Origin: Minisyncoccota bacterium
Lineage (GTDB): Bacteria; Patescibacteriota; Minisyncoccia; Phycocordibacterales; JABAAK01
Assembly: GCA_958295675.1 (NCBI GenBank)
Contig: OY282360.1
Coordinates: 52,133 to 116,132, forward strand
Direction of reading: 5' to 3'
Length of the DNA: 64,000 nt
Shown here: positions 626 through 38,599 of the stretch, piece by piece
Position numbering within the stretch: the first letter of the stretch is position 1
Layout: the number at the start of each line of letters is the position of its first letter
Position numbers and translations under genes: made by a program
The notes under the pieces: generated by a model
The model's database searches: none
What the model saw: only the letters and a program-made list of their open reading frames with translations
What the model was told of the DNA's origin: nothing

Positions 626-657
626 GAAGGTATGCTGTACATAAGACACACAGATTT

Positions 658-3006: not shown

Positions 3007-3013
3007 CAGGCAT

Positions 3014-4358: not shown

Positions 4359-5720
4359 TTATATGTCAATTGTTTTCATCAAAGAGTCAAAATCTTTCTG
4401 AACAATGGAATTACTTTGCATCTCTTTCTGTATTTTTTCACATGCGTGCATGACTGTTGTGTGATCTCTGTTTCCGAATTGTTTGCCGATAAAGGAATAC
4501 GAAAGCCCTAAGTGCTCTCTGAAGATGTACATTATCACCTGTCTCGCATGCACCACCTCCCTTTTGCGCAACTTTGTTGAAAGAAGACCTGGTTGTATTT
4601 TATAAAATTCACAGACAATTTCAACAACATGTTCGTACGGTACAGAGGTTTTGGGGCGCACATGATTCCGTATATACTTCTTAACAGTAACAAGATCAAC
4701 CTGTTTTTGAGATGATTCCGCGGTGTGAAGGTGGATGCTTTTCAATGCCCCGCTCACCTCCCGTATATTTTTTGATACCTTTTCCACAACATAATCAATC
4801 GCATCGGGTGTCATATTTAAGCCCATCTTTCCTGCTTTTTCGGTGCAAACAATACGCATATCCTCATATTTTGGCTGTTCAATATCAATAACAACACCGG
4901 AGTTCAGGCGCGTTCTGATGCGGTCTTCCATTTTGTCCAGTTCCGCCGGGGGTTTGTCTGATGAAAGAACTATCTGCGCGTTTTTGTTTACCAGTGCATT
5001 GAACAGGTGAAACAATTCCATGAGAGTTGATTCGCTTTTCTGTAAAAAATGCACATCATCTATGACAAACAGCTGATAACTTCGGTACATATTCCTGAAT
5101 TCCTTCATGCGGTCTTTTTTCAGCGCAGAGATATAGTTTTCCACAAATGTTTCACTGGTTGTGTAATGCACATTTATTGAAGGATTTATTTTTTTTATCT
5201 TGTTGCCGATTGCCTGCAGAAGATGTGTTTTACCGACACCGGTCGGTCCGTATACATAAAACGGGTTGTACATTGTTCCGAATTTTTCTATAATTGTCTG
5301 AGCCGCTGTATATGCGAATCTGTTGTAAGGAGCAATAACAAAATCTTCAAAGGTAAGATCAGGATTAAGATTGGTTTCTTTATCAAAAGTATTCAATTCA
5401 AGCGGGAAACTTTTTATTTTACTCTTCGGTTTCACCGCTTTCTTGATTATCCTTCGTGATATGGTTAATTTTACACTGCGGACATTGGGACTTGCTTTCA
5501 TAACCTCAGAAGCAATGATACTCTGATAGTTTTTTTGTATCCACCCGCGGGTTAATTCATTCGGCACACCCAAAACAAGCACTCGCCCCTCTTCTTCAAA
5601 CCTGAGCGGAAATACACCCGAAAGCCATGTGTTAAAACTGTTCGCTGAAATGTACTCTTTAACAATCTCAGATACTTCAATCCATAGTGTTTGTATATCA
5701 AGGATGCGTGCAACATTCAT
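4359..5720 (-). CDS. dnaA: Chromosomal replication initiator DnaA
   Basis: 453 aa; Walker [20 protein letters not shown] box, C-terminal DnaA-box binding domain ([11 protein letters not shown]); ATG verified at 5720. Confidence 0.95.
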
Positions 5721-5835
5721 ATGCTTGTATTGTTCCCTATCCGACCCATTATGACAATAGTCAAAAAAGCGAGAAAACCGAAAAGACAGAAGAGAGATTT
5801 GTGCATAACTTGTTAATTAGTCGTCAGTATCGCCT

Positions 5836-5864
5836 ATTGCACCGACAGGCAGCTTGCTGTATAC
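5836..5864 (+). promoter_or_regulatory. Sigma70-like promoter upstream of rpmH (TTGCAC-17nt-TATACT)
   Basis: -35 TTGCAC (5836-5841), 17-nt spacer, -10 TATACT (5859-5864), ~27 nt before rpmH ATG. Confidence 0.4.
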
Positions 5865-5890
5865 TCAACAAACATAGAGTGCAAACTATT

Positions 5891-6025
5891 ATGAAAACAA
5901 AAGTGAAGAAAAGAATGCGTAAACACGGATTTTTAGCGCGCAGTAAAACACCCGCCGGTCGGAGGGTGCTTGCTCGGCGTCGAACAAAGGGCAGATCAAG
6001 ATTAGGTGTAAAAGGTCGCGCGTAA
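5891..6025 (+). CDS. rpmH: 50S ribosomal protein L34
   Basis: 44 aa [44 protein letters not shown]; classic L34; true start is the internal ATG at 5891 of the longer track ORF. Confidence 0.9.
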
Positions 6026-6033
6026 TACAAACC

Positions 6034-6324
6034 ATGAAAACATCATTGTGCCGAGACGAGGTGGGGCAAATTCTAAAAAAAGGAAAGAGAATTATACGCG
6101 ATGATATGATTATAGTTCATAGCGGCAAAAAGTCCGATGCCTGCAAGTATGCGATTCTCGTATCAAAAAAGAAGGTAAGAACAAGCGCGGAAAGGAATAA
6201 AGTGCGGCGAATCATGAGGGAGGTATTGAGGGAGACACCGCTGCCGTTTTCAAGGTTTGTCATTGTCTGTACTGCTAAGAAATATACAAATAAAAGTGTC
6301 AGGCAATCTTTGCAGAAGCAATAG
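6034..6324 (+). CDS. rnpA: Ribonuclease P protein component
   Basis: 96 aa basic protein directly after rpmH and before yidC (conserved rpmH-rnpA-yidC synteny). Confidence 0.8.
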   Translation: MKTSLCRDEVGQILKKGKRIIRDDMIIVHSGKKSDACKYAILVSKKKVRTSAERNKVRRIMREVLRETPLPFSRFVIVCTAKKYTNKSVRQSLQKQ

Positions 6325-6360
6325 ATAATGCTGTATACTGAATGTCATCATATCTAATCT

Positions 6361-7095
6361 ATGGGATTTTTTTTCACAACCTTTTATCAGCCAATAGCAA
6401 ATGTTCTTTTCTGGGTGATGGATGTGTTCAACAATTATAATCTCGCGTTTGGGATTCTGCTGCTTGTCATTATCGTCAAACTCGTCGTGCTTCCGTTGTC
6501 AGTAAAAAACACCAAGTTTCAAATACGAATGAAAGCCATCACGGACGATTTAAAAAAAATACGGGATACCATAAAAGATAAAAAAGAGCAGGCGGAAAAA
6601 ACGCTTGCTTTGTATAAAAAGGCCGGCATCAATCCTTTTACCCCTTTTCTTCTCCTGATTATACAAATACCGATATTCATCGGCGTTTTCTTTGTCGTTC
6701 GAGATTTGGGACAGGGAGATTTTTCGTACACAGACACACTCTACAGTTCCATTGTCCACCAGCCGATTGATCTGCAGTTTCTCTTTCTCAATCTTGCAGA
6801 TAAAGGCGGGCTTTTTATCGCATTGTTGGTCGGTATAACCCAATACATTTTAATGCATTTTTCTCAAAAACACCTCGGAACAACAGTATCAAAGGCACAA
6901 AAAATTGTTTTTACAGTCATTTTCCCCATCGTTGCGGGACTCATATCGTTTTTCTTTGTGGCTGCCGTCGGTGTTTACTGGTTGTTTATCAACCTTGTTT
7001 CAATACTGCAGGAATGTATTGTGCTGCATACTATACGGCAAAAGGAGAACAGGACACAGGACGACATCCCGGTATCTCCGCCAGATAATGTTTAA
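6361..7095 (+). CDS. yidC: Membrane protein insertase YidC/Oxa1 (short form)
   Basis: 244 aa, multi-TM, conserved position after rnpA. Confidence 0.85.
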   Translation: MGFFFTTFYQPIANVLFWVMDVFNNYNLAFGILLLVIIVKLVVLPLSVKNTKFQIRMKAITDDLKKIRDTIKDKKEQAEKTLALYKKAGINPFTPFLLLIIQIPIFIGVFFVVRDLGQGDFSYTDTLYSSIVHQPIDLQFLFLNLADKGGLFIALLVGITQYILMHFSQKHLGTTVSKAQKIVFTVIFPIVAGLISFFFVAAVGVYWLFINLVSILQECIVLHTIRQKENRTQDDIPVSPPDNV

Positions 7096-8932: not shown

Positions 8933-9550
8933 TTAATTACACCACCAGATATGCCAACACCCATCGTCGTCCGGCGGCTCTGCGACATCGTCACCCTTAT
9001 CACCTTTCTGGGTTTGTAAACTGGTTTGTGAGAGTCCAGAAAGGAGTTTTGAATCTAATAGCCTTGGGTTTATAAATTGTAAAATAAGATAGGAAAGCAA
9101 GAGCAAAACAATAGCGATAACAACACCAGTCAGCTTTGTTCGCATATCAAGCACCTTGCCCACATTGCCGCTCAATTTTCCGTAAATCATGCCGGTGCCA
9201 TGTACCGCAAGCATAATAACCGCGATTGTGCCGGCAAATGTGATTAGTATTTTGAGTAGTCCGTTGATTATATCACGCAACGTATCCCCATCCTTCTCAA
9301 CCGCGATTGTCTTCGTTCCGTTTGGTACTAAACCAAAAATATCTGTGACCAGTTTTAATTTTTTAAAACTTTCTTCCCCTCCTGGTAGTGGTATAGCTCT
9401 TATGTTTTCCGTTTCGAGATCTGCTGCTGCTTTTTTAGCATCTATTTCTTCTTCCTCTGCGATAACCGGATGAAACAGAAAGGCGAGAGTAAAAATGCTA
9501 TAAAACAACAGCAAATGTATAGTGTGCTTTTTGATTCTTCCTATTTTCAT
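8933..9550 (-). CDS. Candidate VirB2/TrbC-like pilin (signal peptide + two hydrophobic helices)
   Basis: Signal peptide MKIGRIKKHTIHLLLFYSIFTLAFLFHPVIA, acidic stretch, then two TM helices; placement inside T4SS-like operon; assignment by architecture only. Confidence 0.4.
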   Translation of the reverse strand: MKIGRIKKHTIHLLLFYSIFTLAFLFHPVIAEEEEIDAKKAAADLETENIRAIPLPGGEESFKKLKLVTDIFGLVPNGTKTIAVEKDGDTLRDIINGLLKILITFAGTIAVIMLAVHGTGMIYGKLSGNVGKVLDMRTKLTGVVIAIVLLLLSYLILQFINPRLLDSKLLSGLSQTSLQTQKGDKGDDVAEPPDDDGCWHIWWCN

Positions 9551-10508
9551 TTTCTGCCTGTATTCGCAGGGGTATAGTAACATCCTCCTGCCCATCCGCG
9601 GAAATATCAATTTTTCTACCTTCTTTGAGATGGTTTTGGTTGTTGTTCACAAACCACTTATATTGTATCGCATTTTTTTCAAAATCACCCTTACTGAAAT
9701 AAAACGGGTACACAGAGAAAGTTGCCGGTTTATCGTCGGATAAAGTAACATTTTTTGAGGCAGCGGCATTATCTGAAAGACCATGTAGGAGCGTTGAAGG
9801 ATAAACCAAAACCCTCGGTTCTGTTATAGGGACAAACAACACTCTTTCAAGCAACACATCGTTCCTGTTTATCAGCGTTGCTTCAACTCGCACAAAGACG
9901 GATTCACCAACATGTCGTGCACCCTTCCCGTACACCACACTACTGACCCCCGGTCCGCGGTCTTCAAGAAATTCAGATTTAACTTCCCAGCGAAACGAGA
10001 AATCGTCTTCTGTATATGTTGTGCCGTTTTGATCAATAAAATGTATTTTTGCGGAAATCTTTATCGGGGTTTCCGGGCTGACAAGACGGTGACCCCTATA
10101 CTGCGGTGTGGTCACCGCATCACCCTCCCACAGCAAATCAAAAACAATCGGTCTGACCCATTTTGTAACCTGCAAGGACCGCCTTTGGTCAAATGCGTTA
10201 AAATAAACAATATTCGCGACAATGTGTTTTGGGGAACTGTCAGTCGGCATGTCCAGCTGCAGTTTGTTTGCATATTGTTCCTGCTCATCGCCGTTGATGT
10301 ACCACCGAACCGATCGTATATTTGCCACCGAAGAACCGCCGGATCTGAGAGATGCTGTCACAAAACTGCCGGGAGATGGGTACTCTTCATCCAAAGAAAT
10401 GCTGTATGCGCCATGCTCTCCCTGCTGCGCGAGTGAAACTGTCGCTCCGACAAAAAACAGGAAAAGGAGGGTAATATAGGTAACGCAGGTGATATTTTTT
10501 ACATGCAT
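9498..10508 (-). CDS. Secreted hypothetical protein
   Basis: 336 aa with N-terminal signal peptide (…FFVGATVSLAQQ); part of co-directional operon. Confidence 0.55.
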   Translation of the reverse strand: MHVKNITCVTYITLLFLFFVGATVSLAQQGEHGAYSISLDEEYPSPGSFVTASLRSGGSSVANIRSVRWYINGDEQEQYANKLQLDMPTDSSPKHIVANIVYFNAFDQRRSLQVTKWVRPIVFDLLWEGDAVTTPQYRGHRLVSPETPIKISAKIHFIDQNGTTYTEDDFSFRWEVKSEFLEDRGPGVSSVVYGKGARHVGESVFVRVEATLINRNDVLLERVLFVPITEPRVLVYPSTLLHGLSDNAAASKNVTLSDDKPATFSVYPFYFSKGDFEKNAIQYKWFVNNNQNHLKEGRKIDISADGQEDVTIPLRIQAENENRKNQKAHYTFAVVL

Positions 10509-10573: not shown

Positions 10574-11083
10574 CTAATTTTTCAGCAACATCTTCGATAT
10601 TTCCCGTACCCGCAGAAACCACACAAAAAATGTCCAAAATGTAAAGCCGCCGACGAACGGCAATGATTCCACGAAAAAAACAAGAAGTCCGATAATACAA
10701 TCAAGCAGTGTGTAACTGCCTTTTGGTGTGGCGAGTACAATACTGAGAAATATACACAGCACGATGAGAGAAATGACAAAATGCAAGGTATACACACCAA
10801 GAGATGCACTTATAATAACCTCACCGGCTCGCTCTATATGCTCACCAACTTGCTCTATACTCTCAATCTTAAAATTAAAAAGCCAGTTCAGAGCATTGTT
10901 CACAACCTCGCCAAGCTTGCTCACAAGCTTGCCTACACCCTCAACAATGATACCTCCAGCAGCACCGATTGTTGCAGGCACTGCCGCCACAACCTGAAGA
11001 TTTAAAAAAACAACACCTATTGAATCAGCAATTGCAGCAATGCCGGTAAAAAAGAGCAGCGACATGGAAAGAGGTTTCTTCAT
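10574..11083 (-). CDS. Polytopic small membrane protein, translationally coupled to VirB4
   Basis: 169 aa, ~4 TM segments; start overlaps VirB4 stop by 4 nt (ATGA). Confidence 0.55.
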   Translation of the reverse strand: MKKPLSMSLLFFTGIAAIADSIGVVFLNLQVVAAVPATIGAAGGIIVEGVGKLVSKLGEVVNNALNWLFNFKIESIEQVGEHIERAGEVIISASLGVYTLHFVISLIVLCIFLSIVLATPKGSYTLLDCIIGLLVFFVESLPFVGGFTFWTFFVWFLRVREISKMLLKN

Positions 11084-12948
11084 ACCGTTTCCTGTTCATG
11101 GACAACAGGCGAGTCAGAGGTTTGGCTTTCAGGCGCACCTCCAATTTCTTCTTTCTTTGCCGCGGACTGTTGCGCCAACACCTGTGACGGATCGGAGGTG
11201 ATTATTTTATCTTCCGTCAGCGATGCGATTATTTTTATAGCAACCCTTTTAAGTCCGGCAATAAAAAGACCCTCGCCGAGACCTGCCTCTAAAAGCAGAT
11301 ATTTTTCATTATCAGTCAGGTTAAAAATCTCCTGTATTAAATCTATAGAAGTCGCCGATTGGCGCAGAAGCAGCACAAGTGATGCATTGTTCAATATTGG
11401 TTTCCCATATTTTGACCGAAGAAAGTCACTCACATCCTGTGTAATAGTACCGACACCGAGATAGTACTTTCTGCCCCGCTTCACAAGACCGAACAAAAAT
11501 GCCGCGGTATCATCCGATTGCATCATAATCCACGCTTCATCAACAACAAGCAGTCGTTTCTTCAGATTTTTTCGGACATTATTCCATATAAATCGGGTAA
11601 TAATATACATCGCCGCGGTTTTCAATTCGTCTTCCATATCACGAATTGAGAAGACGACAAACTGCTTGTCCATATCAACATTGGTCGGCTGGTTGATAAA
11701 ACCGGCCCACGAGCCGCTGGTATACCTGTCCAATCGCTCCGCAAGTTCTTCTCCGCCGTCAATGCCGGCAAGCACAAGCGCAAAATCAGACAAGAGAGGC
11801 GGCTCCATATTGCCGAACTCGCCGGACGGAGTGATGTCTTTCAACGCGTATGTTTCTCTGATGGCGCGGTCAACAATTGATTCTTCTTCCTGAGTTAAGC
11901 TGCCGAGCAGAACCCGGAAAAGACCTATAAGATTGATAATCGCACTCCGCAGTACATCGGCGGGGTTCTCATCCTCACCGACAGACGGCAAATCAAACGG
12001 ATTGATATGGTGGTGTGAATTAAGTGAGACATTAAAATACCTGCCTCCGGTTGCCTGCGCAAGCCGTTCAAACTCTTTTTCCGGATCTATAATAATAACA
12101 TTAGTGCCCACCATGAGTGATCGCAGCACTTCAAGTTTCATCGCGTATGATTTTCCCGCTCCAGATGTGGCGAATGTGACGGAGTTGTAGTTCGGCAGTG
12201 AGAAACGGTCAAACAGAATGAGAGATGCATTGTGTTCGTTAATGCCGTACAAGATACCTTTCTCAGACGATAAATCAAACGATACAAACGGGAACAAGCT
12301 CGCTAATGGTTCCGAATTTAATTTTGTGTGTATGGCGAGCAAATCAGTCCCGAAAGGACTGGTACTCCGGAATCCTTGTTCCTGCTGAAAGACGGTCGGC
12401 TTGACGAAAATAAGCCGCCCCTCAAGAATGGAGCGGACATCTTTCTCCACCTCATCAATTTCCTCAAGGTTTTCACCATAAATAGTGATATAAACACCAA
12501 CCTCAAACAGGCGTTCTGTCGCTTGCTGTATATTTGACCGCAAGGTCTCAAGGTCCTGATGAGCGGTATCTAGCTTCGGGTCACGCACCATTCCTTTCCG
12601 TTCCCGCTCAATAATCTGGCTTTCAACCTGCGCAACCTTTCTTCTGAATTTTCTCAGCACATCCTTTGATTCCATAGGGTGTATGTAAATAGCGATATCA
12701 AACTCCTTATTCATATTGATAATCGGAGAAAACCAGCCCTCATTGAGAAAACGCGGGTATGACACGATAGCGAAAGAGCGAACCACCTTATTGCCGAGAG
12801 AGATATTTTTTGGCGTAACCTGTATCGCTGCCGGAGCGATAACATCACGCAATCCGATGCTTGCCTGATCAAAAGATTCATGCGGAATGAAATGATCAAG
12901 GTCATTTTCTTCTTCCCTTCCTTTTTTTAAATTACTCAATAGACCCAT
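11080..12948 (-). CDS. VirB4/TraE/ConE-type type IV secretion ATPase, C-terminal 622 aa segment
   Basis: Walker A TSGAGKSYAMK, Walker B RLLVVDEAW; continuous in frame with upstream ORF across a single TAA. Confidence 0.85.
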   Translation of the reverse strand: MGLLSNLKKGREEENDLDHFIPHESFDQASIGLRDVIAPAAIQVTPKNISLGNKVVRSFAIVSYPRFLNEGWFSPIINMNKEFDIAIYIHPMESKDVLRKFRRKVAQVESQIIERERKGMVRDPKLDTAHQDLETLRSNIQQATERLFEVGVYITIYGENLEEIDEVEKDVRSILEGRLIFVKPTVFQQEQGFRSTSPFGTDLLAIHTKLNSEPLASLFPFVSFDLSSEKGILYGINEHNASLILFDRFSLPNYNSVTFATSGAGKSYAMKLEVLRSLMVGTNVIIIDPEKEFERLAQATGGRYFNVSLNSHHHINPFDLPSVGEDENPADVLRSAIINLIGLFRVLLGSLTQEEESIVDRAIRETYALKDITPSGEFGNMEPPLLSDFALVLAGIDGGEELAERLDRYTSGSWAGFINQPTNVDMDKQFVVFSIRDMEDELKTAAMYIITRFIWNNVRKNLKKRLLVVDEAWIMMQSDDTAAFLFGLVKRGRKYYLGVGTITQDVSDFLRSKYGKPILNNASLVLLLRQSATSIDLIQEIFNLTDNEKYLLLEAGLGEGLFIAGLKRVAIKIIASLTEDKIITSDPSQVLAQQSAAKKEEIGGAPESQTSDSPVVHEQETV

Positions 12949-12954
12949 ACGATG

Positions 12955-13566
12955 TTAGTATACCGCAGGCGGTGCTTGCGTGTCCCCAGGGTTAAATGTT
13001 TGATACAACAATTCGGTCACCTCTTCGGTGCCCAGCTGCACAGCACGCAGACCGAGAGAGCGAATATTGTTCTGTATGAAACCGACCCGCTGCAGCAGTT
13101 GTCCTTGCTGTTCCTCAAACTGCTTCTCTTTTTGTGTTTCAGTTTTTTTGAAGATTTGCAATCCACCTTTCCCTTTTGACTGCACCGGAGAGTAAGTAAC
13201 AATCACAAAGAATTGTTTGGTCATTATTTCATTCTGGTCGGTGAAATCTTTTATAAAATTAATGTATTCCTTTGTTTGCAGGCGAAGCAATTCATTCCCT
13301 TGTTTGTCATGAAGATCCTGCAGAAACTGAAGGTACGGCTTTATATTCAACCGTCTGGACTGTATAAGCACTTGAATACCAACCTCAAGAGAATTAAGCA
13401 GTGACTGAAATTGATACAGAATTGCCTCCCGCTCCGTTTCAGATTTTAAGTTAAAATTAAGAGCGGATACAAGCACAATTGCGCACAATACACCATCCTC
13501 ACGGACAATAATACCATCCTGTATCTCTCTGACAGGTACGAATGATTGTGTGGTGCTGTTTGTCAT
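12955..13566 (-). CDS. VirB4 N-terminal domain segment (203 aa), ends at an in-frame TAA 6 nt before the ATPase segment
   Basis: PVREIQDGIIVREDG…ALNFNLKSE resembles the N-terminus of Gram-positive-type VirB4 (ConE/TcpF/Orf16); same frame as 11080..12948. Confidence 0.7.
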   Translation of the reverse strand: MTNSTTQSFVPVREIQDGIIVREDGVLCAIVLVSALNFNLKSETEREAILYQFQSLLNSLEVGIQVLIQSRRLNIKPYLQFLQDLHDKQGNELLRLQTKEYINFIKDFTDQNEIMTKQFFVIVTYSPVQSKGKGGLQIFKKTETQKEKQFEEQQGQLLQRVGFIQNNIRSLGLRAVQLGTEEVTELLYQTFNPGDTQAPPAVY

Positions 13567-14000
13567 ATAGTTACTTCAATATCATCATCAGGAGCATCGT
13601 CAAACATAAGGTTAGTATTCAGATCATTCACTTTATTTGAATCATGAGTGGCCGCGCTTGACACATCTTCCGAGGTGCTTTGCCGCATTTTCCGTTCCAC
13701 ATATTTTTCATTTCCTTCCTTTTTCCACACATACATTTTTTTGCCGGTAAAAAAACGGATTATTGACTGCAGTACAACTGAGAACGGCTGATTGTTAAAA
13801 TTGAAAAACGCAAGCAATCCCGCGAGGAGCGCGACAGGGGACCCCAAAAACAAGGCGGGCAAGAAACCACCGGCAAAAAAGAAAAGAAATATCATAAAAC
13901 CACCCGCACCGCCGAGATACAACAACTGTTTAAAACTGAGCCCGAAGATGATAGTATCGGAAACATCCAAACTTTGCGGAACTTGAAAGCGCATACGCAC
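13563..14000 (-). CDS. PrgI/VirB3-like small membrane protein
   Basis: 145 aa, two adjacent TM helices, sits immediately upstream of VirB4 with 4-nt overlap, as VirB3/PrgI does in conjugation loci. Confidence 0.55.
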   Translation of the reverse strand: MRMRFQVPQSLDVSDTIIFGLSFKQLLYLGGAGGFMIFLFFFAGGFLPALFLGSPVALLAGLLAFFNFNNQPFSVVLQSIIRFFTGKKMYVWKKEGNEKYVERKMRQSTSEDVSSAATHDSNKVNDLNTNLMFDDAPDDDIEVTI

Positions 14001-14083: not shown

Positions 14084-16549
14084 TCACTCCCTGCCGCCGG
14101 GTCGTGGTGTTCCTTTTCTTGCAGCATTTACTTCCTGCCCAAAGTTGCCGATATCTGTTATTACCGGTTGCCCACCTCCTGGCGGTTGTGCAGGAGATGT
14201 TGGTGTTGTTGTCGGTGGTGGTGTTGTCGGTGGCGGCGTTGTCGGTGGTGGTGTTGGTGACCCACCACCACCTGCTAATATTTTTTCTGCCCTCCTCTTC
14301 ATATTTGGTTTTACATTAGGGTGTTTTTCAATAATTTCTGCTTGATAACGCGGTACTGTCGGACGGTTAAGAACAGTGTTCATAACACCAGTATTATTTG
14401 TATCCCCATCCATTGCACCCTTAATCATTTGTTTAAATTTCTCTTCCCCTTTTTCTCCACCGTCCTTCATCGTCTGACTTTGATTGAGAATATCATTGAT
14501 AACAGCACCACTTGCTTTTTTAACAAGTTTTTCAAACATTTCATCATATTGAGGTGCGGCAATATCACCGGGCACTTTTTTAACAATCTCAGATCGCAAT
14601 TTCATATTTTTATCCCCTGCGTAACTATTCAGAACATCAACATATGACCCTTCGTTATCATTCATATCTTCAATATTTTTCTCAATCTTCGCTTCCTCTG
14701 TTTTCATTCTCCTGATATCTTTTTCAATATTTGCCCTTCTGCTTGCTTTTTCAGGTTCTGTGATGTTTCGCGTGTTAAGATTCCTGATCATTTCCTCCGC
14801 TTGTCTTATATTTTCTTGAACTCCACTGAGTTCCTCATTCTCTTTGTTTCTCTCCTTATCATTTTCTTTAAGGTATGATATGGTCCCGTTAATGGATTTG
14901 ATCTGCTCTTTCTCATCAAGTTTTGCCGGCTCATATACCGATTGTTTTTGAATATTTTCCCTCGCCGCATTTCGGATAGCGATGTCAAGTTTCCCGTCAT
15001 CTGTTATTTTTTTCAAAGTTCTGGTCGAAGTATTTTTATTATTTGCAATCGCCTTCCAAGTCGCCTCATCTTTTTTGGCACCCTTTTCATTACCTTTTTT
15101 GAGACCTTGTTTAAGTATATTTAGTTGAGCCGCACTCAAGGTGTCGTTGGCGGCAAGAGTGGATCCGAAGCCGTTCTCTTTCAGATGTCTTACCTCTCTA
15201 TCCAAAAGTCCCGATGATTTGGCAAGTTTCATCTTCTCATCATATGTGCCGTCAACAACATCAGACCACCTTTCTCTCTGCTCGTTTCGCGTAGCGCGTA
15301 GTTCCTGTATACCTTTTTTCGCCTCTGGAGTGATTTTCTTCCCCCCGAGCACATCCTTGGCGACAGCGGTGTACGCTTTTCCGGTTCTATTGAGGTTTCG
15401 GAATGTTCGCCCCAAAAAAGCTCCCGCTCCAACCCCCACTCCGGTCTTTTGAGCAATCTTACCAAGAGTATTGCTCACGCGACCTGCCGGCAACATTCCC
15501 GCAACATTGCGGGCGATACCGAAGGATGCGCGACCAACAATACCTGCGCCTCGGGGCGAAACAAACTTGCGCAAGTGTTTACCAATCTCAAACTTGCCAA
15601 TCTTTATACTACTGACAATGCGACCCACATAGAAAATGCCGAAGATAAACACAATACTCACAATACACAATTCAACAAGAAATGCTTCAGTATTCGATGC
15701 ATTGTCCTTGAGTATCTTGTTGTTCGCTGTAGCGAATATGTTAAATATAATCAAAAAGCCAAAAATAAGCATGACCGGGGTCAGCAATGCCCTTCTGAAC
15801 ATGTCCTGCCATGTCTCAAAGAACTGCGCGATCATCTTAACACCCGGCGCCTCACGCACCTCTTTGGTAAAAAACCCTAAAAATGCAAGGGGTGATGAGA
15901 TGACCAATAAGATGGCGAGTATAAATCGTTCAATAAGCAGAATGGCAAACCACACAAAACCAAATGAAACAAAAAAGGTTGTAATAGCACCGATTGTTTG
16001 ATAAAGAAATCTCCATAATCCTGACTCAAATACGCCATCCAACCCCTCTTGAGTAGTAAAAAGACCTGTTTGCATAAGATGCTCAATCTCCACCACAGAG
16101 AGAACAGCAATAAACAGAGCGTTTGAAATGTCAAATAACGCTAACACAAAAAAAGCACTGAAGTTTACAAGCAGCGCCACCGCAAGCAGACCAAGTAAAA
16201 TTTTCTTGTTTCTCTCCCAATTTCCGAAAAGCGTGGTTATGGCGGTCAATATAAAGAACACCACAATGAGTAAATTGACGATATCCCGCACCGTCTGCCA
16301 AACGGGCTGCAATCCCAAATCTGTGGTCCAAAAATCGGCAAAATCAAGAATTGTGTACTGAATAACAAACAAAAAAAGTTTTATGCACAAGGCGAAAAAT
16401 CCATTGGCAGCATCCAATAATGCTGAACCCAACATATTACCGATTGCATTAAAAATAGCATATACCTCTATCGGGAATAATATTAACAGCAGCACAAAAA
16501 AGAGAAGCACTCTCAATATTGGTATGTTTTTTTGAAAAGATGTGCGCAT
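14084..16549 (-). CDS. VirB6/TrbL-like polytopic membrane protein with long coiled-coil and Pro/Thr-rich C-terminal tail
   Basis: 821 aa; ~8 TM segments in N-terminal 330 aa; C-terminal ~480 aa hydrophilic, K/E-rich, ending PTPPPTTPPPTTPPPTTTPTSPAQPPGGGQP. Confidence 0.6.
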   Translation of the reverse strand: MRTSFQKNIPILRVLLFFVLLLILFPIEVYAIFNAIGNMLGSALLDAANGFFALCIKLFLFVIQYTILDFADFWTTDLGLQPVWQTVRDIVNLLIVVFFILTAITTLFGNWERNKKILLGLLAVALLVNFSAFFVLALFDISNALFIAVLSVVEIEHLMQTGLFTTQEGLDGVFESGLWRFLYQTIGAITTFFVSFGFVWFAILLIERFILAILLVISSPLAFLGFFTKEVREAPGVKMIAQFFETWQDMFRRALLTPVMLIFGFLIIFNIFATANNKILKDNASNTEAFLVELCIVSIVFIFGIFYVGRIVSSIKIGKFEIGKHLRKFVSPRGAGIVGRASFGIARNVAGMLPAGRVSNTLGKIAQKTGVGVGAGAFLGRTFRNLNRTGKAYTAVAKDVLGGKKITPEAKKGIQELRATRNEQRERWSDVVDGTYDEKMKLAKSSGLLDREVRHLKENGFGSTLAANDTLSAAQLNILKQGLKKGNEKGAKKDEATWKAIANNKNTSTRTLKKITDDGKLDIAIRNAARENIQKQSVYEPAKLDEKEQIKSINGTISYLKENDKERNKENEELSGVQENIRQAEEMIRNLNTRNITEPEKASRRANIEKDIRRMKTEEAKIEKNIEDMNDNEGSYVDVLNSYAGDKNMKLRSEIVKKVPGDIAAPQYDEMFEKLVKKASGAVINDILNQSQTMKDGGEKGEEKFKQMIKGAMDGDTNNTGVMNTVLNRPTVPRYQAEIIEKHPNVKPNMKRRAEKILAGGGGSPTPPPTTPPPTTPPPTTTPTSPAQPPGGGQPVITDIGNFGQEVNAARKGTPRPGGRE
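14196..14280. repeat. Short tandem DNA repeat (GGTGGTGGTGTTGTCGGTGG units) encoding a PPTTPPPTT low-complexity tail
   Basis: Directly visible triplicated ~27-nt unit within the VirB6-like gene. Confidence 0.6.
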
Positions 16550-16557: not shown

Positions 16558-18186
16558 TTACTCAAAAAACAACAGAATGTACTCCGGAGGAAGAGATTTT
16601 TGAATTCTGGTAATTGAATCGGTCATCTCCTTTTCTATTTTACCTCGGAACACACCGGCATTCCGATAGAGTGCGCGGGCATCTGATGCACTCAAATCCT
16701 TCCAAGTTCTCGTCAAGGCACTCAGATCGTTTTCTCCGACAAACACTCTTCCGAGTGAACTATATGCCTCCGAACGCCGCTGAGCCGCGGCGAAATCATA
16801 ATTCTCAAAATCGATTGATGGGGGTGTCAACGCCTGCTGTGCGGATGATGTCGGAAGAGTAACCTGTCCGGCATGTCCGAGCGCAAACAGGAGGTAAGCA
16901 ACCTCTTCTGTTTTTTGCGGCACGGTGTTTAGCATCAATGTAACTGCATTCCCAAAATCATTCAATGTGCAGTTTGTTTTGTATTTACCGGAGACAACCG
17001 GCGGTACCGGCGGATAGTGCCTTCCCAAACATGTCCGATCAGTCTCGTTCTCAAGGCATACAAACCTCCCTGTCTGACCCAATGTGGTAATATTCCTAAT
17101 TTCCGAAGAGGAATAGTGTCGTGCTGAACACTGCGCTTCCTCTTCTCCTTCATGGCACCCCATCTCTTGTGTTGTACATACTTCAGTTTCTGCGTTTTCC
17201 GCGCATACTCGCACATAGTTAACAAAACATCCGGGAAGAAAATCAAGGTCGTTGCGGTTTTGTACAAAAACACGCGCTGTTCCTGATCCAAAGGCGCGCC
17301 GCGTTGTTTCTTCAACCACCTGTCTCAATGAAATGCCCTGATAAAGAGATCTTTGTCCATCTTCACTCCTTTGTATATGCGTTTGATATCCGTTGAGAGA
17401 ACCGCCGTTCCCATAATCCTCATAAGTACCGACAAGTTCAATATATGCCTTTGCGGTTGTTTCATACACACCCTTCATGATAGACAGTCGACTCCGGTCT
17501 GTTTTCAATCCGCACCACGAATCAATAAACGGAGCGCGCTGTAGGTAGGAAGAGGGTCGTTTGATCATGTCAATAAGCTTCGCTCCTCCTCTGTATTGTT
17601 TGATCGCGCCGTCATGCACACCGATAAGATTGTTTTCCGGTCGGAGCACCGGTGTAGTTACAGTAAGATGTTCGGCAGAATCAAGCAGGGGTTCAGCAAC
17701 GCCATTTTGTGAATTCAAGGGGTTTTGATTCGTAACTGTGGCGATTGAAGAGGTCGCGCAGTTAATAGCAGAATCTGCCGTAAACAATAAAGTGTTCGGC
17801 ATTAATAAGGACGGAGTTCTGATATTTTTTAATATATATGAAAAAAGTGTGCTTCCGTCCCGAATAAGGATGTCGGCGACCACTAGTTCCATATATGTTT
17901 TGTTAAAAGAAACGCCGTTGAGTAAATTGACATCTTGCCCTATCCCTGCATTTCGGTTTATTGCTGTTTGTTCCGATGATATCCTCGGAATTTGTTCAAT
18001 ATAACTTCTGATACGGTCAATCTGCTGCTGTCGCTGTTTGATTTTTTGAGCAATTTGATCAATACTCAATTCACTTTTGCGGATGGTTTGAGCTGATACA
18101 GCATTATACTGACAAGAAACAAGAATAAAAAACAGAAAGAAAGCAAGAAAGATAAGGTGCGTGATTTTTGTTACATATATCGTCAT
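16558..18186 (-). CDS. Secreted Cys-containing hypothetical protein
   Basis: ~542 aa from ATG at 18186; signal anchor LIFLAFFLFFILVSCQ; multiple Cys in the C-terminal half. Confidence 0.55.
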   Translation of the reverse strand: MTIYVTKITHLIFLAFFLFFILVSCQYNAVSAQTIRKSELSIDQIAQKIKQRQQQIDRIRSYIEQIPRISSEQTAINRNAGIGQDVNLLNGVSFNKTYMELVVADILIRDGSTLFSYILKNIRTPSLLMPNTLLFTADSAINCATSSIATVTNQNPLNSQNGVAEPLLDSAEHLTVTTPVLRPENNLIGVHDGAIKQYRGGAKLIDMIKRPSSYLQRAPFIDSWCGLKTDRSRLSIMKGVYETTAKAYIELVGTYEDYGNGGSLNGYQTHIQRSEDGQRSLYQGISLRQVVEETTRRAFGSGTARVFVQNRNDLDFLPGCFVNYVRVCAENAETEVCTTQEMGCHEGEEEAQCSARHYSSSEIRNITTLGQTGRFVCLENETDRTCLGRHYPPVPPVVSGKYKTNCTLNDFGNAVTLMLNTVPQKTEEVAYLLFALGHAGQVTLPTSSAQQALTPPSIDFENYDFAAAQRRSEAYSSLGRVFVGENDLSALTRTWKDLSASDARALYRNAGVFRGKIEKEMTDSITRIQKSLPPEYILLFFE

Positions 18187-18188
18187 AC

Positions 18189-20690
18189 TTATGATTCTGA
18201 TGCACACTCTTCTCCCGCCTCTCTGATTTGTGCGCAAACATCAGAAAGGATATTTTCAACCTGAGAATGCACAAGGTTGAGATTATTCAATTCCTGCTCA
18301 AGGCGTTGTATACGATTAGTATATTCCTCATGAATGTCTTCATCTTCCTCCGTCCTCCTATCTATTCGAGATTGTTCAATCTGGGCGCGAATGTTTTCTT
18401 GCTCTTGTTCAATTTTTTCTTTCTCTGACATAAGTATGTTTCTAGATTCTCTATAACTACCAAGAAACAATGCTGCTTGACCTGTTTGGTTTGGTGTCGG
18501 GTTCTGGTTAGGATTATCATCTTGGAATTTAGTTCGAGAAGGTCTCGGCTGTTCGTCTCGAGTACCAGTCGGTCTATACTCATCACCGCTAATAGACCTG
18601 ACCAGCACACTCCCCCTTCCGTACGCTTTTCCACGTCCTTCTGTTATTGATTTTTTGATAAGACCGCCAACTGTCGCATCAACCACCTTTTGAAACACCT
18701 CACCCATCTCATCAGCTTCGGTAACCGGTTCAATCTGCAGATCTATAAACTTTTCCGCTCGATTGTTTATATTTTGTGCTGTTTGGTTAATTCTACAGCG
18801 AAGAAGATTTATTCTTGCCTCAGCACTATCTGTCTCACCAACCTCTTTCACTTCATCCGTGCAATCAAAAGCGGCGAGTGTGTCATCTTCAGCAAGGTTT
18901 GTGGAGCCGGGTGTTTGTTCGCCAATTTCTCTTGCGATCTCGTCAACTCTTCTCTGTTGTATGTGTCTCTGCATACCCAGCGATCCTCCGGTTTCTGCAA
19001 CATAATGTCCGAACAGCTTTGTCGTTTGATTAATCAAATTCTGCACCTCTCTGTTAATGCTTTCTCTCGGTCTGGTTCGCGGAACAGATCCGGAAGATAT
19101 ATTCACCGCACCTGAAATATTGATATCAAAAGGATTTTCCGCAAATTCTCTTAAATTATTTTTAAAATCAGACAGGGTGCACCTTGGTCTTTGAATTTGC
19201 GGTCGGGTGTACTGGATAGAGAGAATATTGGATATGTCAATCTCCACGCCATCAATATCACAGAGAAAACCAAGACCTTCCCGCTCCAACGCATCGCCGA
19301 TCGCTCTGTCTGTAAAATCTTTCCAGAACTGATTCGGATGTGATATGAAAAGTGGTCTACCATTAAAACCATCCATTGCAAAATTTATATATTCATTAGC
19401 AATATCAGCAGCTATTTCTTTAGCCCAATTATTGATATCAATATCACTAAAGCATTCCTTAAAAATATTTGGTCCATCAAGGTTTGCAACAGAAGTTGTT
19501 GCCACGAGGTTTGCAGCCAACCCGGCTGTGACACATGCGGCCATTGGACCAATCGTCGAAAAAGCCAACCCTTTTAATGCATTCTTAACAAAGTCATCCT
19601 CTTCATAACTACCCTCCTCAAAATTAAAATTCGGTCCATCTCCCGCGCTATATTGTGGGTCACCAAAGTCCAAAGGCGGTTGTCCGTCACCGCTCGGAAA
19701 CACAATACCCGGGAAATCAGCGGGAACAGCGGTTTGGTCAAAGGGGTTGCTACCCCCTTCGGAACCAGAAGGAGTGCTGTCCGGTGCATGCCGCGCCACA
19801 CACTCTGCATCAGTTTCATTCACAAAACACACATATTGTTTGCCGTCAATGGTTCGTACTTCAAACTGCGATTCAAAGCGATGTCTCGTGAGACACTCCG
19901 CATCAGTTTCATCTTTATGGCACAGAAGTTGCTGTGTTGTACATACCCGTTCTTCACCTTCACCGACGCACACCTCAATAGATCTGTACTCTGACTGTGC
20001 CGTATGCCGCGCCACACACTCCGCATCAGTTTCATTCACAAAACACACATATTGTTTGCCGTCAATGGTTCGTACTTCAAACTGCGATTCCAAGCGATGT
20101 CTCGCGAGACATTCCGCATCAGTTTCATCTTTATGGCACAGAAGTTGCTGTGTTGTACATACCCGTTCTTCACCTTCACCGACACACACTTCAATAGCTC
20201 TGTACTCTGATTGTGCTGTATGCCGCGCCACACACTCCGCATCAGTTTCATCTGTAAAGCACATAAATTGTTTGCCGTCAATGGTTCGTACTTCAAGACG
20301 GGCCAAATTCCTTTCCCGGCACTCTTCGTCAGTTTCGTCAGTGAAACACACCAATTGCCGTGTTGTACAGAATTCCCGCCCATCGCTTTCAATGCAAATT
20401 TCCATATTTTGTACCACAGTCCCTTGTATCACGGTTCCCTGTACCACAGTCCCTTGTATTCCACCTCGAGGAATACCTATTAAAAGACCGCCGTCCGGTG
20501 TGCCGGAGGCGACACGGTCCGAAAAAGGCGTACCGGATCCTCCATCACCGCCATTGAAACCAACATTGAAAACAAGCCAACCGCCAAGCGCTAAAGAGAG
20601 CACAACAACAACTCCCAGCACAATAGAAACCAAAGCAATACCACTATTGTCAGAGAAATATTTGTTCATACACACACAGTATACTCTCAA
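18189..20690 (-). CDS. Large membrane-anchored surface protein with tandem 82-aa Cys-rich acidic repeats
   Basis: 833 aa; N-terminal TM IALVSIVLGVVVVLSLALGGWLVF; ~3.5 repeats of CFTDETDAECVARHTAQSEYR…CVGEGEERVCTTQQLLCHKDETDAEC; coiled-coil C-terminus. Confidence 0.6.
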   Translation of the reverse strand: MRVYCVCMNKYFSDNSGIALVSIVLGVVVVLSLALGGWLVFNVGFNGGDGGSGTPFSDRVASGTPDGGLLIGIPRGGIQGTVVQGTVIQGTVVQNMEICIESDGREFCTTRQLVCFTDETDEECRERNLARLEVRTIDGKQFMCFTDETDAECVARHTAQSEYRAIEVCVGEGEERVCTTQQLLCHKDETDAECLARHRLESQFEVRTIDGKQYVCFVNETDAECVARHTAQSEYRSIEVCVGEGEERVCTTQQLLCHKDETDAECLTRHRFESQFEVRTIDGKQYVCFVNETDAECVARHAPDSTPSGSEGGSNPFDQTAVPADFPGIVFPSGDGQPPLDFGDPQYSAGDGPNFNFEEGSYEEDDFVKNALKGLAFSTIGPMAACVTAGLAANLVATTSVANLDGPNIFKECFSDIDINNWAKEIAADIANEYINFAMDGFNGRPLFISHPNQFWKDFTDRAIGDALEREGLGFLCDIDGVEIDISNILSIQYTRPQIQRPRCTLSDFKNNLREFAENPFDINISGAVNISSGSVPRTRPRESINREVQNLINQTTKLFGHYVAETGGSLGMQRHIQQRRVDEIAREIGEQTPGSTNLAEDDTLAAFDCTDEVKEVGETDSAEARINLLRCRINQTAQNINNRAEKFIDLQIEPVTEADEMGEVFQKVVDATVGGLIKKSITEGRGKAYGRGSVLVRSISGDEYRPTGTRDEQPRPSRTKFQDDNPNQNPTPNQTGQAALFLGSYRESRNILMSEKEKIEQEQENIRAQIEQSRIDRRTEEDEDIHEEYTNRIQRLEQELNNLNLVHSQVENILSDVCAQIREAGEECASES
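19780..20400. repeat. Intragenic tandem repeat, 246-bp period, ~2.5 copies
   Basis: Near-identical 246-nt units visible in the DNA and as repeated 82-aa blocks in both strands' translations. Confidence 0.7.
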
Positions 20691-21595
20691 TTTTCAGACG
20701 AAACACCTGATTGCAGTGAATTCACAACAGATAGTGCGATATTGATAAATGCGTTACGAGCCCCCTCTGTAGTCGGATCTTGAATATGTTGGAACATTTT
20801 TCCTGTAGTAAGCAGCTTGATCGCATAAAAATAGTTTTCCGCGGTATTGGATGCAACAGCGACATCAAGAGCTTCACAAAGATAGGTTATTCTCTCCAAA
20901 ATAAGATAATACGATTCATATACATCATTCGGCACATTTCTCGGTATAGTTTTCAGTGTAAAATCACATGCCGCTTGAACTCTTTTTGTGTCGGGAGACA
21001 CCGCGGTATTTTTTGCGAAAATCTCAAATACAAGATCGCCTATCGGTTGTTTTTCTTTAGAAAAAGATTGGAGTGCAAGCAGAAACTCACTCAGTACCAT
21101 CTCTCGGGAAACTGTGTTGTCAATATTCAAATGAACACGAGGCAAACCGCGCCGCTCAACCCGTTTCAGAAAATAGTCAGTGGATATATCAACAAATTGA
21201 TCTTTTTCTTCCGGAGAAACCTCAGAACCGTCAATATCACCCAGCAAGAACCTCATTACAATATCCTCAGTGAACTCCCCCGGACCGCCATACAACAATT
21301 CGTTAACGGTTATATTCTTGGTCAAGGCAATATCTTTGTGATACGGAAAAGAAGAGGCATTCAACGGATCGGATTCGGTGATATCTTCAAGCCAATCAGG
21401 AACACCATCACCATCACTGTCTGATTCTGTTGTGTGGGTTTCAAGACGAATACCGTGTTCGTCCAATTGGGATGTTGGCGTAGATTTCGAGAAAAAAATA
21501 ATAAGGAACACTGCGGCAAAAAAGATAAACAGCAACGCGATTCGTTTGCGAACAAGGGGTATGTTTTTAGGAAGTAATCGCATACCGTACAGCAA
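20687..21595 (-). CDS. Membrane-anchored hypothetical protein (first gene of the T4SS-like operon)
   Basis: 302 aa; N-terminal TM IALLFIFFAAVFLIIFF; acidic DSDGDGVPDW stretch. Confidence 0.55.
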   Translation of the reverse strand: MLYGMRLLPKNIPLVRKRIALLFIFFAAVFLIIFFSKSTPTSQLDEHGIRLETHTTESDSDGDGVPDWLEDITESDPLNASSFPYHKDIALTKNITVNELLYGGPGEFTEDIVMRFLLGDIDGSEVSPEEKDQFVDISTDYFLKRVERRGLPRVHLNIDNTVSREMVLSEFLLALQSFSKEKQPIGDLVFEIFAKNTAVSPDTKRVQAACDFTLKTIPRNVPNDVYESYYLILERITYLCEALDVAVASNTAENYFYAIKLLTTGKMFQHIQDPTTEGARNAFINIALSVVNSLQSGVSSEN

Positions 21596-26515: not shown

Positions 26516-28423
26516 TTATTGTGCGTTCGCTGAACGAATGCGGTTATTTATCTCCACAATTGCCTCCTCATTGCCGACAATAAACACAAGGATTGAACGG
26601 TTGAAGAAGTAGTACATCAAACGATACTCGCTTTTCGGGTTCTTTAGAATACGCACCTCTTTATTATCTATTAATCTCGTTTCAACAGAGGTGTTTTCCG
26701 TATTCGCGGATTGGATTGTGTTCGGAAATACATTGCTGAACGCGTTCAGCGCGTTCTTTTCCCAGTTGAGCATCCAAACAAGCGCGTCTCCATATCGTTC
26801 CACACCAACAATAAATACACCGTTCGCGCTCGTATTTGTGGTGTAATTGCCGGTGAAATACCAACCGCGCAATGTTTCAAGCAAACCGTTCGGCAGATTC
26901 ATGGTAAACAATCTTGAGAACTCCTCCAATGAGAGCAGAACATTCTGGTCTTCACGAATTGCATAAGGAATAAATTTGCTGATAGTGTATTGCTGACCGG
27001 CATTCCGTGTGATACCGTTCCAATCTTCAATTGCTGTGGTGATATCGACAGCAACCTGCCGCTCACTGATGATAACATCGGAAGATGGTTGTATTTCTTC
27101 CGGGGCAATAATACCGGAAGTTTCATTCGGACGGGTCGCTATAGAAATAATGACCACAACCAGTCCGACCAGAATAAGTAATACAATCAGTATCGCGACA
27201 ACACTTTGTTTCTGTATAATGATATTTTTCGGCGGGTGTACATCATATGACCGCACATCCCGTGTTTCAAATCCCTGTTCGCGTAACCGCTCTTTTTTCT
27301 CAGAAAATTCCTGCCATTTCTTTCGCATACTTTCTTTCTCAATCACCTCCTCTTGTTGTTGCTGCATGATCAGCTGTTCCGCTTCACTAAATGATTCTCG
27401 GCGTTTGCCGACATTGCGCAGCCATGCGAACATACCCGGCTTTTTAGGTAATTGTCCGGCGGTCTCCTGCGGAGCGGTTTCAATAGGGGCTGATGTTTTG
27501 TTTGTCTGAACTATGGATGCACCCAACGGCTGCGCGTTCATGGAAGGTTGTGTCGGTGCGGATTGTTCGGCGGCTGTTTCCGGCAATCGATCTCTTATCT
27601 CATCAACAGTCACAGTGTTCGGTTTTGTGCTTTTTTGTATGCTGTCCGAATCTGAACCATCCGCGACTGCATCGCTTGCGATATTCTGTTTCTCTGCTGC
27701 CGGAAACGGTTCAACATCTTTCATGTAGTCAGCCGCTCCCGCAATGGATTTTGTGATGTGCTCTTTATGTATATCTTGCTCCGTCTGTTCCGGTTTTCCC
27801 GTCTCTTTTTCCTTCCGCGACCATTTTTTCATGAGGTTTCGCTGTTCATCTTTCAGAACAGCGGATTCTTTCATAAGTTCACGCACATTCTGCCGGTATG
27901 TTTCCTGTGCTTTCTTTTTTTCTTCCATCTCGCGAGCAAGCACAGTTCGCAGTTCAGTACCTCCGGTCGTTTTTGCAACCTGCTGACTGTCGCCCCTATA
28001 TGTTCTGAGTGTCGGAATATGGATCACTTTCTTTTTTTCTTCAGGTGCAGCACCCTCTGTACTTGGGGAGGGTTCAGGAAAGCTTTTCGGACCGGATACT
28101 TTTTTTAAAGAACTTTCAGTTTCTACTGTCGGACCATCGGATGCGGATACCGCATGAGAATCAGCGGTACGATGGTCGGGCGGCACCTCATCCGCAATCG
28201 GCGCGTTCATCTGACTTGTATCACCACCTTGTTCTGATGGCGTTTCAGCAGCCACTGATTCAGGCGGTTTCTTTGATGCACCTGCATGTTGTGCGGTCAA
28301 CGCATTGTTTTTTGTCTGTGCGGACTCATTTGATCTCTCCACAGCGGAGTCGTCGGCTTGTTTTGCAGAACCCGGGATATCAAATTCACGCTTTACTATC
28401 TCTTTGTTGTCTTCTTCCTCCAT
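26516..28423 (-). CDS. Hypothetical membrane protein (long disordered N-terminal region, one TM, C-terminal globular domain)
   Basis: 635 aa; low-complexity charged N-terminal ~400 aa, TM VVAILIVLLILVGLVVVIISIA, ~200 aa C-terminal domain. Confidence 0.55.
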   Translation of the reverse strand: MEEEDNKEIVKREFDIPGSAKQADDSAVERSNESAQTKNNALTAQHAGASKKPPESVAAETPSEQGGDTSQMNAPIADEVPPDHRTADSHAVSASDGPTVETESSLKKVSGPKSFPEPSPSTEGAAPEEKKKVIHIPTLRTYRGDSQQVAKTTGGTELRTVLAREMEEKKKAQETYRQNVRELMKESAVLKDEQRNLMKKWSRKEKETGKPEQTEQDIHKEHITKSIAGAADYMKDVEPFPAAEKQNIASDAVADGSDSDSIQKSTKPNTVTVDEIRDRLPETAAEQSAPTQPSMNAQPLGASIVQTNKTSAPIETAPQETAGQLPKKPGMFAWLRNVGKRRESFSEAEQLIMQQQQEEVIEKESMRKKWQEFSEKKERLREQGFETRDVRSYDVHPPKNIIIQKQSVVAILIVLLILVGLVVVIISIATRPNETSGIIAPEEIQPSSDVIISERQVAVDITTAIEDWNGITRNAGQQYTISKFIPYAIREDQNVLLSLEEFSRLFTMNLPNGLLETLRGWYFTGNYTTNTSANGVFIVGVERYGDALVWMLNWEKNALNAFSNVFPNTIQSANTENTSVETRLIDNKEVRILKNPKSEYRLMYYFFNRSILVFIVGNEEAIVEINNRIRSANAQ

Positions 28424-37484: not shown

Positions 37485-37504
37485 AAAATGTATTCCATTG
37501 CCGG

Positions 37505-38473: not shown

Positions 38474-38599
38474 ATATACATCATAATAACACGCAAAACT
38501 CAAGACAGAATATATAAAAAACAATAAATGGATTTCTATAGATATCCAGGGTGCCGTTCAGGCGATTATGCTCGAACTATAGCACGAAAGTTGAAAGAG

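Follow-up and report, generated by a model that had tools for sequence, protein, structure and literature searches.

The subject of this report is a gene that lies within the operon of a chromosomal type IV secretion system (T4SS), on a 64,000-nucleotide stretch of DNA (contig OY282360.1 of assembly GCA_958295675.1, positions 52,133 to 116,132) that is referred to as a whole as the window. This window comes from a Patescibacteria (Candidate Phyla Radiation, CPR) chromosome, from close to the replication origin, and carries the genes for RuvC, PBP1, DnaN, DnaA and YidC at 128-7095. The 833-residue product of the gene, hereafter the target, is read as a membrane-anchored, extracytoplasmic and modular component of this Paceibacteria/Kaiserbacteria-like T4SS operon, an assignment to which we give a probability of roughly 55%. 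It appears to belong to a family of T4SS-operon surface proteins, undescribed among the components named in the available parts of the literature, in which an unannotated conserved domain is joined, in the target, to an orphan Cys-rich module. From the start of the gene to its end, the target is organized as follows:

18189..20690, minus strand: target open reading frame (ORF), 833 aa, TTG start
20568..20642, minus strand: N-terminal transmembrane (TM) anchor, aa 17-41 (Kyte-Doolittle 19-residue window, score 2.86)
20409..20458, minus strand: QGTV(V/I) x3 mini-repeat in a Gly-rich spacer ahead of the Cys array (Tandem Repeats Finder, TRF; protein sequence)
20193..20402, minus strand: Cys module copy 1, aa 97-166, 6 Cys, a diverged copy with 66-71% DNA identity to copies 2 and 3
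19977..20192, minus strand: Cys module copy 2, aa 167-238, 72 aa, 6 Cys (TRF, sequence comparison)
19776..19976, minus strand: Cys module copy 3, aa 239-305, 6 Cys, 93% DNA identity to copy 2
19596..19775, minus strand: Pro/Gly/Asp-rich linker, aa 306-365 (from the sequence)
18576..19595, minus strand: conserved family domain, aa 366-705, ~340 aa (434 relatives, alignments, AlphaFold2 (AF2) model)
18192..18455, minus strand: highly charged, probably coiled-coil tail, aa 746-833 (sequence, weak match to a coiled-coil Pfam model)

A preliminary description of this DNA had proposed an 833-residue protein with a single N-terminal TM segment, and both elements are present, aa 17-41 being the one strong segment in the hydropathy profile; a second, weaker hydrophobic helix at approximately aa 371-402 falls below the TM threshold used. 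The TTG start codon shares bases with the stop codon of the preceding gene, as TTGA, an alternative ATG start is found at codon 8 (position 20669), and an identical protein is on record (P0001) on a contig of 724,510 bp. The mini-repeat has a period of 15 nt and codes three times for QGTVV/QGTVI. The C-terminus had been described as a long coiled coil; a coiled coil is probable, and it is confined to the last ~90 residues, which terminate in C-x9-C. The target carries no LPxTG sorting signal (searched as LP.[TSA]G), and Pfam and NCBIfam scans of the target and its relatives detected no toxin or enzyme domains.

The part of the protein that places it in a wider family is the conserved domain. 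A HMMER search with aa 1-745 as query against 1.84 billion cluster representatives yielded 434 relatives at a cut-off of E<=1e-3, with 5.5e-63 as the best value outside the orthologues. Among the 150 matches listed, 148 align only via aa ~320-745, with a core at ~370-525 and a second block at ~600-705; the remaining two are the close orthologue P0002 and an orthologue (P0096) of the neighbouring protein g559, the latter being the sole listed match from outside the target's family that aligns to the repeat region. The domain opens with the moderately hydrophobic helix of aa 371-402 and displays in the target the motifs KECxxD, GLGFLCD, PRCTLSD and EADEMGE, while alignments of 14 and 77 sequences give KECxLD, W..GF.G.P.F..P, GLGFLC, CTLS and ADE.GE as conserved in the family, with C477 and C504 invariant across the 77 aligned sequences. 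Conserved residues are mostly Gly, Pro, Trp and Phe, which suggests a structural more than a catalytic role. No match to the domain was obtained in Pfam, NCBIfam or PDB sequences for the target and 45 relatives, and a tblastn search of 72,556 plasmids returned nothing for a typical family member and one chance-level archaeal match (E 0.03) for the target domain. The AF2 model of the domain is mostly helical, with a mean predicted local distance difference test score (pLDDT) of 66 and a predicted TM-score (pTM) of 0.41.

Family members range from 172 to 2268 aa in length and follow a common plan, in which an N-terminal signal peptide or TM segment is followed by a variable insert of 0 to >1000 aa, the moderately hydrophobic helix and the conserved domain, with C-terminal modules often coming after it. 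Most of the members examined have an N-terminal TM anchor or a Sec-type signal peptide, and the short ones display an AxAQ-like signal-peptidase consensus. The slot between the N-terminal TM segment and the conserved domain, which in the target is filled by the Cys module, holds DnaJ, fn3 or nothing in relatives: DnaJ alone occupies aa 138-190 in one of them (P0004), another (P0014) combines DnaJ (aa 83-136) with fn3, and a DnaJ match was found in 8 of the 35 relatives scanned. Discoidin and Ig-like domains occur at the C-terminus of some members. An extracytoplasmic location of the target is likely: it has an N-terminal anchor, the short members display the AxAQ consensus, Cys pairs are invariant, and domains of the fn3, discoidin and Ig types occur as partners; a J-domain on a T4SS-operon protein that bears a signal peptide or TM segment is odd, and could point either to delivery into a host cell or to a different topology.

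The association with a T4SS, also proposed in the preliminary description, is borne out by the gene order. The target is the second gene of a minus-strand operon that runs from 21595 to 7580 and encodes g302, the target, g559, a VirB6-like protein, PrgI/VirB3, TrsD and VirB4, followed by three small membrane proteins, of which one is a VirB2-like pilin, and by a 446-aa single-TM protein. The members of the operon that bear on the target are listed here:

20687..21595, minus strand: g302, upstream single-TM gene, partner in the triad g302 - family member - VirB6-like gene
16558..18237, minus strand: g559, downstream neighbour, 549-559 aa, lying between the target and the VirB6-like gene
17014..17214, minus strand: single 6-Cys module in g559 (its aa 342-408), 40-44% identity to the target copies
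14084..16549, minus strand: VirB6-like protein, polytopic, 821 aa (TM count, synteny)
13563-14000, minus strand: PrgI/VirB3-like (profile match)
12955-13566, minus strand: TrsD (profile match)
11080-12948, minus strand: VirB4 ATPase (369 bits to NF045971)
8933..9610, minus strand: VirB2-like T4SS pilin (below the Pfam and NCBIfam cut-offs)

When species-representative genomes were probed with VirB4, the nearest sequences came from 'Candidatus Kaiserbacteria'/Paceibacterota metagenome-assembled genomes (MAGs), at 76-83% identity. A survey of synteny covered 80 VirB4-probed loci, with a further locus, L001, fetched separately. Of the 80, 19 carried a family member upstream of VirB4 on the strand of VirB4, as did L001; the next gene encoded a VirB6-like protein with 6-8 TM segments in 17 of these 19 loci, and the preceding gene encoded a single-TM protein similar in size to g302 in 14 of the 16 that had an upstream ORF. 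At the level of sequence, BLAST confirmed similarity to g302 in L005 alone (31% over 254 aa), that of L006 being limited to a 24-residue TSP3-like motif. Giovannonibacteria, Niyogibacteria, Azambacteria and Doudnabacteria are among the lineages with family loci. It is this fixed position beside VirB6 that would tie the conserved domain, and with it the protein, to the T4SS. Insertion of g559 ahead of the VirB6-like gene was seen, among the loci examined, only in the window and in L001.

Within the operon itself, the g302 motif DSDGDGVPDWLED resembles a bacterial TSP3 calcium-binding repeat (weak Pfam match), and the VirB6-like protein carries a long charged C-terminal extension with a Pro/Thr-rich end tract, PTPPPTTPPPTTPPPTTTPTSP. 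VirB4 looks split, which prompted consideration of an alternative genetic code; this was ruled out, since TAA, TAG and TGA end long ORFs 19, 8 and 7 times, respectively, and the apparent split corresponds to the known TrsD + VirB4 arrangement.

Gene order also lends itself to a sharper version of the same reading, namely that the family is the analogue of VirB5, which would sit on the VirB6 platform, nucleate a VirB2-like pilus and end up at its tip, with the Cys repeats serving as a tip adhesin. The family gene immediately precedes that of the VirB6-like protein, as in the classic virB5-virB6 order, VirB2-like pilins are encoded in the same operon, and in the short members a signal peptide that looks cleavable precedes a hydrophobic or amphipathic helix. 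VirB5 proteins, however, are about 220 aa long, and the domain of ~340 aa exceeds them in size. In addition, no VirB5 or TrbJ model was among the Pfam and NCBIfam matches of the target or of more than 35 relatives. Several members match DUF4141 weakly at the said helix (best E 8.7e-6, 25.5 bits, cut-off 30), and DUF4141 genes adjoin traJ (VirB6) in Bacteroides conjugative transposons (PMC10434189), but these matches lie below threshold, cover ~35 residues only and are absent from the target. No VirB5 is reported for the Patescibacteria clade in the available part of a 2025 survey (PMC12102498). On balance, the identification with VirB5 is a tentative one, to be considered doubtful.

The second part of the target to be accounted for is the array of Cys-rich, acidic tandem repeats. 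The array itself is genuine and lies far above chance: at an offset of 216, 169 shared 12-mers were counted, as opposed to at most 6 in 200 codon shuffles, and TRF reports an array at 19788-20296 with a period of 216, 94% matches and a score of 906. Cys accounts for 8.6% of its residues, versus 0.63% in 8 other window proteins, and the array carries a net charge of -23 over 209 aa, with 47 Asp and Glu residues. Several details of the preliminary description required revision: the period is 216 bp, or 72 aa, and not 246 bp or 82 aa; the array holds three copies instead of ~3.5; each copy has six Cys in place of four or five; and near-identity applies to copies 2 and 3, copy 1 being diverged from both. 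The suggestion of a recent expansion stands, given the 93% DNA identity of copies 2 and 3.

Each 72-aa unit is composed of two related half-units, A with four Cys (for example, EVCVGEGEERVCTTQQLLCHKDETDAECLARH) and B with two (for example, EVRTIDGKQYVCFVNETDAECVARH), both of which terminate in C-x3-ETD-x-E-C-x2-RH. In the array, 18 Cys are grouped into nine C-x8-C pairs, with exactly eight residues between the partners and three pairs per copy, and no CxxC motif is present in the target protein. Since the Cys are even in number and strictly spaced as C-x8-C, and CxxC is lacking, these residues are probably disulfide-paired and locally stapled.

A profile hidden Markov model (HMM) of the 72-aa module was run on the 151 proteins from the HMMER search, on the six-frame translation of the window and on 81 fetched loci, and matched only the target (3 copies), P0002 (2.5), g559 (1) and P0096 (1). 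Pfam searches with single modules and with the whole array returned only sub-threshold, chance-level matches at E<=10, and a profile search of the PDB with the module gave no match (best E 1.7). No relative was found by a degenerate-pattern scan for the module in 241 million metagenome records of the Joint Genome Institute (JGI), or by a scan of JGI metagenomes with the two orthologues, in which the automatic peptide patterns were poor. As far as its sequence goes, then, the Cys module is an orphan, so far of a single lineage, that is common to two adjacent T4SS-operon genes. Outside its module, g559 is unrelated to the target or to the target's family, and its candidacy as a diverged paralogue of the family was ruled out (hhalign probability 0.2%, HMMs at E>3).

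The same residues could be taken to coordinate metal instead of forming disulfides, in which case the Cys/His/acidic modules would form a metal-dependent or metal-scavenging surface array, with Zn or Fe held by the C-x8-C pairs and the RH histidine, or Ca held by the DETDxE loops. The His at the end of the half-unit is kept in 5 of the 6 half-units of the target and in both of those of g559, the region is strongly acidic, the upstream g302 has its TSP3-like Ca-binding motif, and Dsb genes were not seen in the window. The first A half-unit, however, is without the His, knuckles of the CxxC or CxxH kind, as are typical for Zn sites, are absent, and no metal-binding Pfam family was matched even at E<=10; strict pairing of Cys at a fixed spacing of eight residues, in a region that is probably exported, is typical of local disulfides. 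Binding of Ca is compatible with disulfides, and so is no true competitor to them. Metal coordination in their place is considered improbable, somewhat more so than the VirB5 assignment.

Variation of the array between strains is documented by one comparison. A first search of 5.8 billion proteins recovered only the target itself and P0002, which is 795 aa long and 92% identical to the target where aligned. The array has 3 copies in the window and 2.5 in L001, the difference being due to one segment:

20036..20128, minus strand: 93-nt segment absent from the L001 orthologue, one half-unit between two ETDAEC-coding motifs (sequence comparison)

This segment is bounded by a 16-nt direct repeat, ATGAAACTGATGCGGA, within the ETDAEC-coding motif. 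The L001 orthologue has two further small in-frame indels elsewhere, and among the few amino acid differences between target and orthologue is I88V, which falls in the QGTVV/QGTVI mini-repeat. Of the phase or length variation that had been anticipated, it is thus the latter that is seen, in the form of the loss of an in-frame half-unit; phase variation is not, all changes being in frame, and the target ORF holds no frameshift-prone simple repeats, its repeat units of 216 nt and 15 nt both being divisible by 3. Substitution rates, all of which were calculated from the pair formed by the window and L001, were as follows:

Cys repeats: dN/dS 0.13, dN 0.0145
Conserved domain: dN/dS 0.30, dN 0.071
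VirB6-like protein: dN/dS 0.47, dN 0.083
PNPase, ComM, UvrD and KsgA: dN/dS 0.05-0.10, dN 0.003-0.016

Purifying selection acts on the Cys repeats, which show 12 synonymous and 6 non-synonymous changes between the strains; they are coding sequence under constraint, not junk. In this region, the fast-evolving genes are those of the T4SS envelope proteins, and between the two strains the VirB6-like protein evolves fastest of all.

The rapid divergence of the conserved domain (dN 0.071, versus 0.003-0.016 for the housekeeping genes) would also suit a protein that is not part of the machine at all, namely a T4SS substrate that reaches the host cell as an effector or toxin. A polymorphic architecture with swappable modules is in keeping with this possibility, and the J-domains of other members would make sense within a host cell. 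A substrate that crosses the envelope in one step would, however, be unusual in having the N-terminal TM segment or Sec-type signal peptide found in most members examined, and the slot between g302 and VirB6 is strictly kept across many lineages, as would be expected of a machine subunit; toxin or enzyme domains were not detected, and, in the available part of the survey of Patescibacteria T4SS clusters, a coupling protein is absent beside virB4 in most of them (PMC12102498). Delivery as a substrate is therefore rated unlikely. An artefact of assembly, as an explanation either of the array of repeats or of the different copy numbers in the two sequences, is rated very improbable: short-read assemblers can collapse or mis-join 216-bp repeats at 93% identity, and the two assemblies are the only ones, with the shorter array on a contig of 23.7 kb, but the reading frame is kept in both, the copies differ by scattered, mostly synonymous substitutions, the changes between strains show a dN/dS of 0.13, the deletion junction shares 16 identical nt in the window, which is under the usual assembly k-mers, and a diverged single module is present in the neighbouring gene of both assemblies.

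If the target is indeed a membrane-anchored, modular component of the T4SS, a working model of its action can be proposed. The conserved domain (aa 366-705) would dock the protein onto the T4SS, while the variable slot would display lineage-specific passenger modules. The three copies of the Cys module could form disulfide-stapled hairpin or loop units that together provide a rigid, negatively charged stalk or binding surface facing outward, an arrangement suggested by the pairing of Cys as C-x8-C, by the export signals and by the partner domains of extracellular type found in relatives. The array would grow or shrink by recombination or slippage between near-identical ETDAEC-coding stretches, generating in-frame length variants. 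A role as adhesin or at the tip of a pilus is plausible for such a protein, and its position beside VirB6 and its swappable modules fit this idea.

A number of points weigh against this model. No match in sequence to VirB5, PrgB or any known adhesin was obtained for the target, and the AF2 model of its conserved domain, itself of only moderate quality, matches no solved structure, so that the fold offers no hint of function. Docking onto the T4SS is deduced only from gene adjacency. No Dsb-type oxidoreductase was seen within the 64-kb window, and variation in copy number is based on two sequences only. DnaJ is normally cytoplasmic, and its presence in the same slot of other members casts some doubt on the topology; moreover, if aa 371-402 were a second TM segment, the slot and the conserved domain would lie on opposite sides of the membrane. 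Finally, in the available part of the published record, the T4SS cluster of cultivated Saccharibacteria (Southlakia) has no obvious counterpart gene.

The ultra-small Patescibacteria account for a large part of the diversity of bacteria and live attached to other microorganisms, and the T4SS was found to be essential for epibiotic growth in one species tested by transposon sequencing (Tn-seq), according to the available part of that study (PMC10633639). A conserved, unannotated family that is encoded beside VirB6 and displays lineage-specific exposed modules is a concrete candidate for the part of the machine that makes contact with the host. The Cys module alone is a lineage-restricted curiosity unless a binding partner is found; the more valuable lead is the VirB6-adjacent family with its swappable modules, whose 340-aa domain had been missed in the preliminary description. 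At its most ambitious, and only as a speculation of low probability, the proposal would be that the conserved domain marks a missing host-contact subunit, VirB5-like or new, on VirB6 or the pilus, that the slot sets the host, and that the module common to the target and g559 is a resizable recognition element. If this were true, the contents of the swappable slot (Cys stalk, J-domains, fn3 or lectin-like domains) would decide which host cell the epibiont attaches to or manipulates, and the shared Cys module would constitute a lineage-specific, rapidly resizable means of host recognition.

Other features of the window deserve a brief record. The region 37500-48000 is a low-GC island (33-36%, versus ~43-49% elsewhere) and is probably a horizontally acquired defence island. 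It encodes an adenine methylase of the EcoRI type at 42538-43566, a GmrSD_N/HNH endonuclease at 41445-42536 and, at 45023-45751, a protein with a superinfection-immunity domain; three large ORFs in it (37505-41258) have no Pfam match. Between ComM and PNPase, a 635-aa ORF (26516-28423, minus strand) has no Pfam match and a dN/dS of 0.39, above that of its housekeeping neighbours. ComEC usually carries a beta-lactamase-fold domain itself; here, the genes for a Competence/DUF4131 protein of the ComEC type and for a protein with a metallo-beta-lactamase fold stand apart (59107-60627 and 62051-62941, plus strand), with a DUF2268 gene and a gene for an Fe/Mn superoxide dismutase between them.

In comparison with systems already described, the Cys array resembles eukaryote-type repeats such as EGF, LDL-receptor class A, TNFR and TSP3, which are likewise small, acidic, Cys-rich tandem modules of 35-70 aa and are suited to extracellular stalks and Ca-dependent binding; the three C-x8-C pairs of the target module, however, match the Cys spacing of none of them. 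The secretion system itself is of a familiar kind. The T4SS of Patescibacteria has been described as Gram-positive-like and of the MPF_FATA type in the available parts of two reports (Quinonero-Coronel et al. 2025, PMC12102498; Wang et al. 2023, PMC10633639), and, as far as the former extends, it shares with the operon of the window the VirB6-like protein, PrgI/VirB3, a separate TrsD, VirB4 and a VirB2-like pilin, as well as the lack of a relaxase or coupling protein and a location near dnaA. Among the components that the same parts of these two papers name, the family of the target does not figure, and the accessible portion of the 2025 survey reports that no adhesins were detected for the Patescibacteria T4SS (PMC12102498).

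Among individual T4SS components, VirB5/TrbJ and the Bacteroidetes DUF4141 proteins encoded by traJ share with the family a gene position before virB6 and the company of VirB2-like pilins; the short family members likewise have a signal peptide followed by a hydrophobic helix, with weak matches to DUF4141. Unlike the family, VirB5/TrbJ proteins have a smaller domain and no long variable inserts, and the target retains a TM anchor that looks uncleaved. PrgB of pCF10, a Gram-positive T4SS adhesin, is like the target large, encoded in a T4SS operon, surface-directed and endowed with repeats, and is thought to mediate cell contact, whereas the target has no LPxTG signal and no adhesin-domain or Antigen I/II-type Pfam match, and is anchored by an N-terminal TM segment. 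A last parallel is provided by the Trw T4SS of Bartonella (PMC12857230), where variation also concerns surface-exposed parts, namely copies of VirB2 and VirB5, and has been proposed to match host surfaces; Trw, however, varies by the multiplication of whole genes, whereas the target would do so within one gene, by the swapping of modules and by in-frame changes in the number of repeats.

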